Origin: an uncultured Pseudomonadota bacterium
GTDB lineage: Bacteria; Pseudomonadota; Alphaproteobacteria; Rs-D84
Direction: 5' to 3'
Length of the DNA stretch: 64,000 nt
Assembly (NCBI GenBank): GCA_902787305.1
Contig: CADAFS010000003.1
Coordinates: 7,119-71,118, forward strand
Below are positions 57,986 to 58,094 of the stretch, piece after piece (position 1 is the first letter of the stretch; every line of letters starts with the position of its first letter). A program made the translations under genes and the position numbers. Under the pieces are notes generated by a model. It saw nothing but the letters and a program-made list of their open reading frames with translations, made no database searches and was not told where the DNA came from.

Positions 57986-58094
57986 GGTGGTTAGTGTAAG
58001 TGTTAGTGGTTATCCGTCTTCGTCCGTCATCGCAAAGCGATGCCGTGACTACGCCGAGACTGCGCCAGGGCCTTGCCCTGGCTTGGTGTTAGTG
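57986..58094 (-). repeat. Double-hairpin REP-like element, copy F, with GTWAGT array
   Basis: GGTGGTTAGTGTAAGTGTTAGTGGTTATCCGTC...CATCGCAAAGCGATG...GCGCCAGGGCCTTGCCCTGGCTTGGTGTTAGTG. Confidence 0.8.

Follow-up and report, generated by a model that had tools for sequence, protein, structure and literature searches.

The window analysed here, a 64-kb stretch of DNA that forms a piece of a 75-kb metagenome contig, carries six full copies of a short non-coding repeat built from two different hairpins, H1 and H2. The repeat belongs to a previously undescribed family that is specific to the lineage of Candidatus (Ca.) Enterousia (order Rs-D84), and as far as its sequence can be compared it matches none of the described REP (repetitive extragenic palindromic) families that could be checked. 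We consider it likely that the family represents REP-like non-coding repeats of the roughly 0.9-Mb Ca. Enterousia genomes, arranged as mosaics in the style of BIMEs (bacterial interspersed mosaic elements) or NIMEs (neisserial intergenic mosaic elements). The hairpins are maintained by compensatory change, and between close genomes the elements were gained, lost and reshuffled at the DNA level. Most copies lie inside 3' untranslated regions (3' UTRs), in one or the other orientation; the elements furthermore coincide with rearrangement junctions and bracket a strain-specific, defence-type cassette. Three features are particular to the family, namely the fixed pair of two hairpins with a conserved leader, a GTAG motif that faces CGAA, and the embedding in stop-rich hexamer arrays. 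Apart from this GTAG/CGAA frame and the pads of stop-rich hexamers, the persistence in a genome of roughly 0.9 Mb and the bracketed cassette are unusual as well.

Architecture, distribution and structural conservation

The orientation that the first-pass annotation of the window had called '+' is used as sense throughout. Read in this direction, the unit has a length of 55-105 nt and the order ACT[AT]AC-A, CCAA, H1, GCA, H2, usually followed by further ACTWAY hexamers, with ACACCAA as leader. H1 (GCCAGGGC-AAA-GCCCTGGC) is a 19-nt hairpin with an 8-bp GC stem and an AAA loop and is almost invariant; when the copies are read together with their flanks, the consensus and the first hairpin appear as that annotation had described them. 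H2 has a constant frame that can be written as [stem]-U-CGSY-GTAG-[variable or nested hairpin]-CGAA-RSCG-[stem], i.e. a base stem (A)GTC/GAT(T) of 3-5 bp, a bulged U, CG+SY pairing with RS+CG, and a 3x3 internal loop GTA/GAA, given as GTAG...CGAA together with its closing G-C pair. The GTAG tag is not a free end; it faces the conserved CGAA in the internal loop of the larger hairpin. It stands 5' of the apex palindrome in 48 of the 63 distinct copies, while four show one-base variants and 11 are A-type copies without GTAG/CGAA, window copy A among them. The antisense strand starts with TCCGTC.

The apex of H2 is exchangeable between copies. It can be CGAAG, giving GCGAAGC with a 5-nt mini-hairpin, or CCnnnGG, or a 26-nt hairpin TCA-CG-g-CAYCGC-ttt-GCGRTG-a-CG-GA that is a miniature repeat of the outer frame, or the same 26-nt hairpin with a 30-nt hairpin (TATCACAC-GAA-GTT-tt-AAC-GAA-GTGTGATA) nested in its loop, or CGAATYCG...YGATRAAAG. 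GCGAAGC is known as a DNA mini-hairpin of unusual stability, and the first of these apex types is identical to it; in RNA, sheared G.A pairs could just as well arise within the symmetric, purine-rich loops (GUA/GAA, GAA/GAA). Long as well as short forms can have the 30-nt hairpin nested in the H2 loop. This hairpin acts like an insertable module of its own, because the orthologous copy of L019 (other loci are given by L numbers) is without it; L041 and L047 differ from L019 by this nested hairpin. Moreover, a module named H0 precedes many copies in other genomes (L008, L014, L019, L022, L027, L029, L035, L038, L056), and solo H2 modules without H1 occur with the base stems GGCC/GGCC, ATC/GAT, TGCC/GGGC and TGTC/GACA, some of them beside tRNA genes.

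In the window, the 19-nt H1 sequence GCCAGGGCAAAGCCCTGGC, with up to three mismatches allowed (<=3), matches exactly six loci, whereas 0.01 matches are expected from dinucleotide-preserving shuffles. An nhmmer profile of the repeat family, run over the whole 64 kb, returned the same six full copies only, plus an H2-only match here named V (Table 1). Both searches thus recover the six full copies listed in the first-pass annotation, the census of which is complete. Its seventh member, the variant at 37262-37329, is V and a partial relative: it has the second hairpin in common with the family, but its first hairpin differs.

Outside the window, one genome per species was scanned with the H1-based pattern, which gave 29 loci in eight of 185,579 species. 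All eight are species of metagenome-assembled genomes (MAGs) from uncultured rumen, omasum or gut Alphaproteobacteria, several of them named Ca. Enterousia, for which genome sizes of 0.75-1.0 Mb with about 90% coding sequence are given for Enterousia and the order Rs-D84 (PMC12306168). With a looser pattern, in which the inner 13 nt of H1 were left free, 25 JGI metagenome contigs from rumen were obtained, all of them Ca. Enterousia-like. The family totals 66 copies, about 60 of them distinct, and with its occurrence in at least eight MAG species and 25 metagenome contigs it is hence not confined to the window. Viral contigs scanned with the H1 pattern and with an H2 pattern yielded no match, and neither did plasmids in a blastn search with copy F. 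Rfam at gathering score reported two tRNAs only for the whole window, and at E<=10 nothing besides tRNA over 37200-38000, the region of V, H0 and copy C. A literature search for the H1 sequence found no paper, and in the Enterousia papers that were found the repeats are not mentioned. By these searches, the family is not a named one.

To score the structure, 31 distinct short H2 cores were aligned with MAFFT; 84.5% of the cells in the alignment are paired compared to 76.7% after shuffling (0/500 shuffles at or above). The covariation score amounts to 0.228 versus 0.132 (again 0/500), with all slid controls at <=0.11. Double changes are found at pair 10:32 (CG in 18 and UA in 12 cores) and pair 4:37 (UA in 22, CG in 7), and the apex hairpin exchanges CACCGC/GCGGTG for CATCGC/GCGATG. 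Pair 4 of H1 is A-T, G.T (window copy E) or G-C (L039, L042), which includes one full A-T to G-C exchange. All copies fold as the same H1+H2 structure with z-scores of -3 to -4.6. It had been proposed from the window alone that hairpin 2 varies in sequence yet pairs, and this extends to the enlarged set: all forms in more than 60 copies fit one architecture, compensatory variation is seen, and the structure is still conserved with more copies aligned. The pairings then listed hold for copies A and B (the first apex state given above) and for C and F (the second), whereas those for D and E represent one of two possible readings. The number of independent covariation events is modest, because the sub-families are copies of one another.

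The assignment of a functional strand is less straightforward. As first noted, the H1 variants of copies E (GCCGGGGC) and C (GCCAGGGT) give G.T pairs on one strand only, the one named at that time. H1 shows 11 G.T cells and no A.C cell; the scan pattern fixed the 3' arm, a bias that leaves approximately four independent events. In the long-form H2, roughly 8-9 G.T events stand against four A.C events. On the antisense strand, however, the leader (reverse complement CUUGGUGU) pairs with the start of H2 (reverse complement ACGCCGAG) in an 8-bp helix; two of its pairs are G.U in almost every copy and would read A.C on the sense strand. Minimum free energies and alifold energies are equal on both strands. 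Since each strand has its own G.U-only features, we do not assign a functional strand, and the one implied by the first-pass reading of G.U pairs does not generalise.

Gene ends, stop codons and DNA-level turnover

The gene context, taken from crude calls of open reading frames (ORFs), places the copies in 21 convergent, 33 co-directional (unidirectional) and 4 divergent gaps. The tail, i.e. the GGAT end, abuts the stop of an opposite-strand gene in 43 cases, with a median distance of 12 nt and with 20 of the 43 within 8 nt; between the head and the same-strand upstream gene, the median distance is 66 nt. A canonical terminator of the abutting gene is found beyond the element in 24 of these 43 cases. 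Because they are located after stop codons and usually before the terminator, most elements lie in 3' UTRs and must be transcribed there in one or the other orientation. In the window all copies are intergenic, and copy A sits just upstream of dnaX, as had been stated before. The tail triplet is mostly TAA and becomes TTA or TCA where it coincides with the very end of a gene on the opposite strand (E, D, L022, L024, L035), which is the reason why the stops of two genes fall into an element, as the first annotation had claimed: the tail of copy D (GGATCA) supplies the TGA of accC (41596-41598), and that of copy E (GGATTA) carries the stop of sspB (43438-43440). The stop of mreB (37972-37974), claimed likewise, comes from the hexamer that flanks copy C.

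Stop codons are present on either strand of the ACTWAY hexamers, which through their period of 6-7 leave no frame open. Their array pattern has 16 matches in the window versus 0 expected. ACTAACA or ACTTACA precedes the head in 46 of the 63 copies. In the small ORF 14431-14697 as well as in QueH, the C-terminal residues together with the stop are encoded by hexamer arrays. The arrays of hexamers or heptamers (CACTAAC/CACTTAC/CACTAAT) are located in intergenic gaps between stops and terminators, with or without an element.

Turnover was followed by blastn of the window against the loci and by an analysis of flank pairs, in genomes that are 90-97% identical. The 1.84 kb of 41597-43437, comprising copy D in inverted orientation, a Fic-domain gene, the 134-aa ORF134 and copy E, are absent from L009 and L017 (95-97% identical), where the stops of accC and sspB lie 7 nt apart. 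This empty site is a 9-bp perfect palindrome, GAAGTAAGT-tgt-ACTTACTTC, to which both convergent genes contribute their ends. Among the PADLOC models, that of SoFic, an anti-phage system, is matched by the Fic protein at 2e-20. At the same sspB junction, L024 shows an F-type head joined to an E-type H2. After the small ORF 14431-14697, the window has no element, L007 and L045 have one short element, and L048 has two long ones in tandem. The mreB site carries the long form in most genomes and the short form in L017; the extra H0 of the window is absent there from L006, L009 and L034. Synteny with other genomes ends at copies A, B and F (and E). In the 300 nt of sspB beside copy E (43438-43737), the window has 22 differences to L009 and 18 to the more distant L024, while overall it is ~97% identical to L009 and ~92% to L024. 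This pattern, with its small numbers, may hint at a recombinational import of the filled allele.

Comparison with known repeats and competing explanations

We file the family with the REP/BIME kind because its stop-adjacent position, GTAG tag, G.T pairs and nested loops match published REPs (Di Nocera et al., 2013, PMC3733652; Nunvar et al., 2010, PMC2817692). Those comprise two superfamilies with a GTAG or a CGTC tag, the latter mainly from Alphaproteobacteria and without a dedicated transposase or RAYT (REP-associated tyrosine transposase); their sub-families show complementary stem changes, frequent G.T pairs and loops with nested self-complementary inserts, and they lie between convergent and unidirectional ORFs, the conv-REPs <20 bp from both ORF ends and with termini that supply stops (PMC3733652). 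The Enterousia repeats resemble REPs and BIMEs as short GC-rich palindromes, probably in the conserved GTAG beside the palindrome and CGTC on the other strand, and in the complementary stem changes, the G.T pairs, the nested loop inserts and the modular or tandem layout. Equally similar are the position near the 3' ends (~20 nt) of convergent or unidirectional ORFs, the stop-supplying termini, and the restriction to one lineage; the alphaproteobacterial CGTC type is without a dedicated transposase, and none was found for the present family in the 479 kb searched. With 19 nt for H1 and 25-27 nt for the inner H2 hairpin, the size is that of REP palindromes (about 20-40 nt), and the location is extragenic, mainly in convergent and unidirectional gaps near 3' ends. 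The original suggestion of MITE/REP-type DNA therefore gains support in its REP part from dispersal, polymorphism at orthologous sites, compensatory stems, the GTAG tag and the gene context. In contrast to REPs and BIMEs, however, the Enterousia unit is a fixed pair of unrelated hairpins (H1 + H2) and not a single palindrome or inverted dimer, its GTAG is part of an internal loop and has an equally conserved CGAA across from it, it has the conserved single-stranded leader ACACCAAG and sits in ACTWAY arrays, its host has a genome of ~0.9 Mb with ~90% coding sequence, and its copy number is seemingly in the tens, not hundreds.

Several more specific classes do not apply. BIMEs proper consist of alternating dimers, which were not seen; the modules follow each other in the same orientation (H0-hexamer-H1-H2, and the tandem units of L048). 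Miniature inverted-repeat transposable elements (MITEs) in the strict sense, part of the first proposal, have terminal inverted repeats and a target-site duplication, whereas here the tail (...GACGGATAA) does not repeat the head (ACACCAAGCC...) in inverted form. The direct repeats CACTTACA at copy A and CACTAACA at copy F lie in hexamer arrays and are therefore uninformative as duplications. An integron attC site does not fit either, with flanking hexamers that are direct instead of inverted and do not agree with RYYYAAC, while attC has inverted core sites R''(RYYYAAC)/R'(GTTRRRY) that close one long hairpin. Intrinsic termination, for which a U-tract would have to stand right behind a GC-rich hairpin, is rejected as a general role, as sense H1 is followed by GCAGUC and antisense H1 by UUGGUGU[UA], and only copy B passes a lenient scan. 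No covariance model matched that would make it an Rfam RNA family.

NIMEs (RS units and dRS3) and minimal mobile elements are known from Neisseria. Like these, the Enterousia repeats form an intergenic mosaic of modules, flank strain-variable cassettes between conserved genes and occur at rearrangement points; they are unrelated in sequence, come from another host class and show no link to uptake sequences or phage integration. The Rickettsia palindromic elements (RPEs) are often inserted in frame inside genes. Both they and the present family are palindromic repeats persisting in a reduced alphaproteobacterial genome, but the Enterousia copies are all extragenic and contribute at most last codons or a stop. 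Elements from both groups, namely dRS3 as CGTC-1 as well as RPE-4 and RPE-6, are listed among the CGTC REPs (PMC3733652).

Regarding the mechanism, we propose that the elements multiply and are reshuffled as DNA. They might spread by a strand-specific mechanism on single-stranded hairpins, driven in trans by a RAYT or by a HUH enzyme of the IS200 kind. Copies might also recombine or undergo gene conversion with one another, the route that has been proposed for the alphaproteobacterial CGTC-type REPs lacking a dedicated transposase. Once placed, they would act as 3'-UTR hairpins that block 3'-5' exonucleases and influence read-through or termination; where a stop is no more than about 15 nt away, translation termination could be affected. 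The stop-rich hexamer arrays would make an insertion at gene ends harmless. For E. coli, REPs within ~15 nt of the stop reportedly affect translation termination, according to work by Liang, Rudd and Deutscher in 2015.

Some observations weigh against an interpretation as REP-like repeats. A phmmer search with E. coli RayT, as a single-sequence query against the ORFs of at least 60 aa (>=60 aa) in the 479 kb of window and loci, found no RAYT or Y1 match (best E 0.5) in these partial genomes, a RAYT gene flanked by REPs being associated with the GTAG type only; this search had been suggested together with the first annotation and remains of limited reach for the same reasons. No clean target-site duplication or defined insertion footprint emerges from filled versus empty sites, so that transposition is a candidate mechanism only; the polymorphisms could be explained by import through recombination. 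As described above, GTAG faces a conserved CGAA within an internal loop and does not form a free end. Conservation of H1, of the leader and of the GTAG/CGAA loop is far higher than that of the rest, and this could point to a sequence-specific function at the level of the host instead of selfish spread. Finally, the exact-pattern copies per MAG are low in number (1-9), compared to more than 100 per genome (>100) typical of classic REPs. As a counterweight, MAG assemblies break at repeats and the window has six copies in 64 kb; since the repeats seem to break short-read assemblies, the MAG copy numbers are probably underestimates.

Alternatively, the elements could be primarily cis-acting structured 3'-UTR RNAs, either a recognition motif for a protein or RNase or a terminator or anti-read-through device, which we regard as rather unlikely. 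The H1 + H2 frame with its bulged U and the 3x3 purine loop GUAG/CGAA (potential G.A, U.A and A.G pairs) would then be the motif, and the multiplicity would come from selection, not mobility, the device being reused after many genes of a reduced genome. The position between stop codon and terminator, and thus in transcripts, agrees with such a role, as do the invariant internal loop and leader beside an apex and outer stem that vary or covary, which is what a recognition motif would show, the solo H2 modules with different outer stems that also stand beside tRNA genes, and the conserved G.U pairs of the antisense leader/H2 helix. At copy B, antisense H1 followed by UUGGUGUU even passes the lenient terminator scan. 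However, the elements can point either way with respect to the gene that is transcribed (about 43 antisense-readable and 36 sense-readable), the two strands fold equally well, and the strand-specific G.U signals are opposite for different helices. Where a canonical terminator follows the element, as in the 24 cases mentioned, the element is not the terminator. Moreover, orthologous genes in close relatives carry 0, 1 or 2 copies, and no Rfam family matched.

It is still less probable that the repeats form the termini of a mobile system that depends on hairpins, be it of the IS200/IS605-PATE type or a new one that mobilises cassettes. PATEs are palindrome-associated transposable elements derived from the insertion sequences IS200/IS605; they insert 3' of a fixed tetra- or pentanucleotide, with a Y1 TnpA in the genome, and the target of IS608 is TTAC, which the head flank ACTAACA/ACTTACA resembles. 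In such a system, the hairpin of the left end would be H1 and that of the right end H2, insertions would go into the hexamer arrays 3' of ACT[AT]AC, and inverted pairs such as D/E could carry the SoFic cassette. The different subterminal hairpins at the two ends, the conserved short sequence 5' of the left end (found at the head of most copies) and the absence of terminal inverted repeats resemble PATEs. In addition, the empty sites are hexamer arrays, D(-) and E(+) bracket the 1.84-kb insertion with their tails pointing outward, and another tail-out pair brackets a small ORF in L024. The window shares its element/sspB-stop junction exactly with L024, which is more distant, and with neither L009 nor L017; this would indicate a site-specific insertion or a precise loss. 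Against this, no TnpA or other Y1 transposase was found by phmmer in the 479 kb, the orientations in the window alternate (+,-,+,-,+,-) and fit poorly to a strong bias relative to the replication strand, none being apparent there, and the relation of empty and filled sites is not clean: the difference does not equal the element length, since the filled site has other sequence in place of the 7-nt spacer GTTGTAC. Essential genes (metG) lie inside the B/C 'pair', and the local sspB sequence hints at recombinational import. The IS200/IS605 family is reviewed in PMC6006769.

A related, speculative idea to which we give little credence is that the H1/H2 unit serves as the recognition module of a hairpin-guided, stop-adjacent insertion system that moves cassettes into ACTWAY 'landing pads' of an otherwise streamlined 0.9-Mb genome, with the invariant bulged-U/GTAG/CGAA frame as protein-binding core read on one DNA strand. 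The SoFic-like gene between D and E and a thrice-duplicated 69-aa ORF may be candidate cargo of such a putative system. Independent small-RNA genes, another suggestion of the first annotation, are very improbable despite the compact, stable structure and the sequence conservation across species, as there is no consistent promoter-like site upstream (the flank is usually an opposite-direction terminator plus hexamers), no terminator after the tail, which runs straight into the end of the neighbouring gene, and no Rfam match.

Returning to REP-like repeats as the preferred interpretation, one would not expect genomes of ~0.75-1.0 Mb with ~90% coding sequence to tolerate dispersed repeats, and REP-type elements would persist there. 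They mark points of rearrangement and of the acquisition of accessory genes, including a defence-type gene, and they shape gene ends, as the stops and last residues of several proteins derive from them. Furthermore, they offer an explanation for contig breaks in MAGs of the Enterousia group and are usable as a lineage-specific marker. The GTAG/CGAA frame and the stop-rich arrays provide handles on DNA versus RNA action and on the spread of REPs without RAYT.

Individual copies and accompanying modules

The features of the window and the sites of two accompanying modules in other loci are compiled in Table 1. The gene names accC, mreB-family, SspB, QueH and DUF805 are backed by Pfam marks on the same contig, and the calls of dnaX and the Fic-domain gene hold; infC, xseB and mutS beside copy F are names from reading the ORF translations alone.

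Table 1. Repeat copies, modules, hexamer arrays and associated ORFs; positions without a locus number refer to the window.
Feature	Position	Strand	Remarks
Copy A	10636-10718	+	Profile span 10641-10699; 'A-type' H2 without GTAG/CGAA (CG-g-CACCGC...GCGGTG-a-CG); CACTTACA on either side; dnaX starts 17 nt downstream; left edge is a synteny breakpoint versus L007
Copy B	34349-34437	-	Profile span 34364-34431; long form, most diverged copy (TTCGAT...GATGGA); tail 4 nt from stop of DUF805 gene 33821-34348(+); reverse complement with H1 + TTGGTGTT passes lenient terminator scan
Array upstream of copy B	34438-34497	-	Inverted hexamers and H0-like hairpin (ATCGCGGCACACCGCACCGCGAT); encodes last QueH codons and TAG stop; similarity to L003 orthologue stops at 34497
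V	37262-37329	-	Solo H2 module TGTC-U-CGCC-GTAG-CCTTGG-CGAA-GGCG-GACA after a different hairpin (GAATTTTCA...TGAAAATTC); profile span 37260-37290; directly 3' of tRNA-Val 37330-37406; orthologues with changed stems in L006, L017, L034
Module H0	37845-37877	+	CCGTCGCGGCACGCCGCGCCGCGGTCGTGACGG; optional, related to inner H2 hairpin
Copy C	37878-37977	+	Profile span 37889-37956; long form; H1 variant GCCAGGGT-ACA-GCCCTGGC; orthologues in L003, L006, L009, L034, L043; short form at same site in L017
Copy D	41596-41660	-	Profile span 41598-41654; short form, apex GCGAAGC; left boundary of 1.84-kb insertion
Cargo between D and E	41661-43365	+	Fic-domain gene 41756-42775; ORF134 42863-43267 (134 aa)
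Copy E	43366-43440	+	Profile span 43380-43438; short form (CGCC-GTAG-CCgcaGG-CGAA-GGCG); H1 variant GCCGGGGC (G.T); right boundary of 1.84-kb insertion
Copy F	57986-58094	-	Profile span 58022-58089, core 58011-58089; long form with leader, H1 (GCCAGGGC-AAG-GCCCTGGC), H2 (nested CATCGC/GCGATG hairpin) and ACTWAY hexamers; between stop of small ORF 58089-58298(-) and bidirectional terminator common with infC
Small ORF	14431-14697	+	Common 69-aa core (MFETVITDSPIPQTVIKALYRYYEQPQNSMTVGEMYLLLKLVLSKMEDEFEKMGIDIEKEL...)
Small ORF	37450-37737	-	Same 69-aa core
Small ORF	58089-58298	-	Same 69-aa core
Hexamer array	925-944	-	Between stop codon and intrinsic terminator
Hexamer array	3701-3714
Hexamer array	14202-14221
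Hexamer array	14675-14721	+	'Empty' site, no element
Hexamer array	35509-35535
Hexamer array	55578-55607	+	Between two convergent terminators
Hexamer array	58546-58581	+	Upstream of small ORF 58089-58298
Copies with 30-nt nested hairpin	L020:1231-1335, L027:334-438, L028:2808-2891, L029:4391-4495, L041:1637-1741, L047:6929-7033
Second-leader sites	L011:861-919, L036:10757, L056:7612 and 7757, window 37290-37329

At copy D, an independent assembly is available with L002 (Logan ERR3275106 contig, 1849 nt), which has an identical accC and ends 38 nt past the gene at the element. The three small paralogous ORFs are 77-93% identical to one another, and each is bounded by repeats; orthologues were found in L006, L007, L009, L017, L024, L032, L034, L045 and L048, and in L024 one copy lies between an inverted pair of elements. 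Neither this small-ORF family nor ORF134 has a match in Pfam, NCBIfam, PHROG, PADLOC or PDB.

Solo H2 modules, in part with long AT-rich inserts in the apex, are also found behind a second leader (AAAATTCAGTGTC), which often stands right next to the end of a terminator. Further repeat hairpins (GTTCCCCTCC...GGAGGGG) recur in the loci as well. With the second leader and these other recurrent hairpins, Enterousia-type genomes therefore contain several small repeat families.

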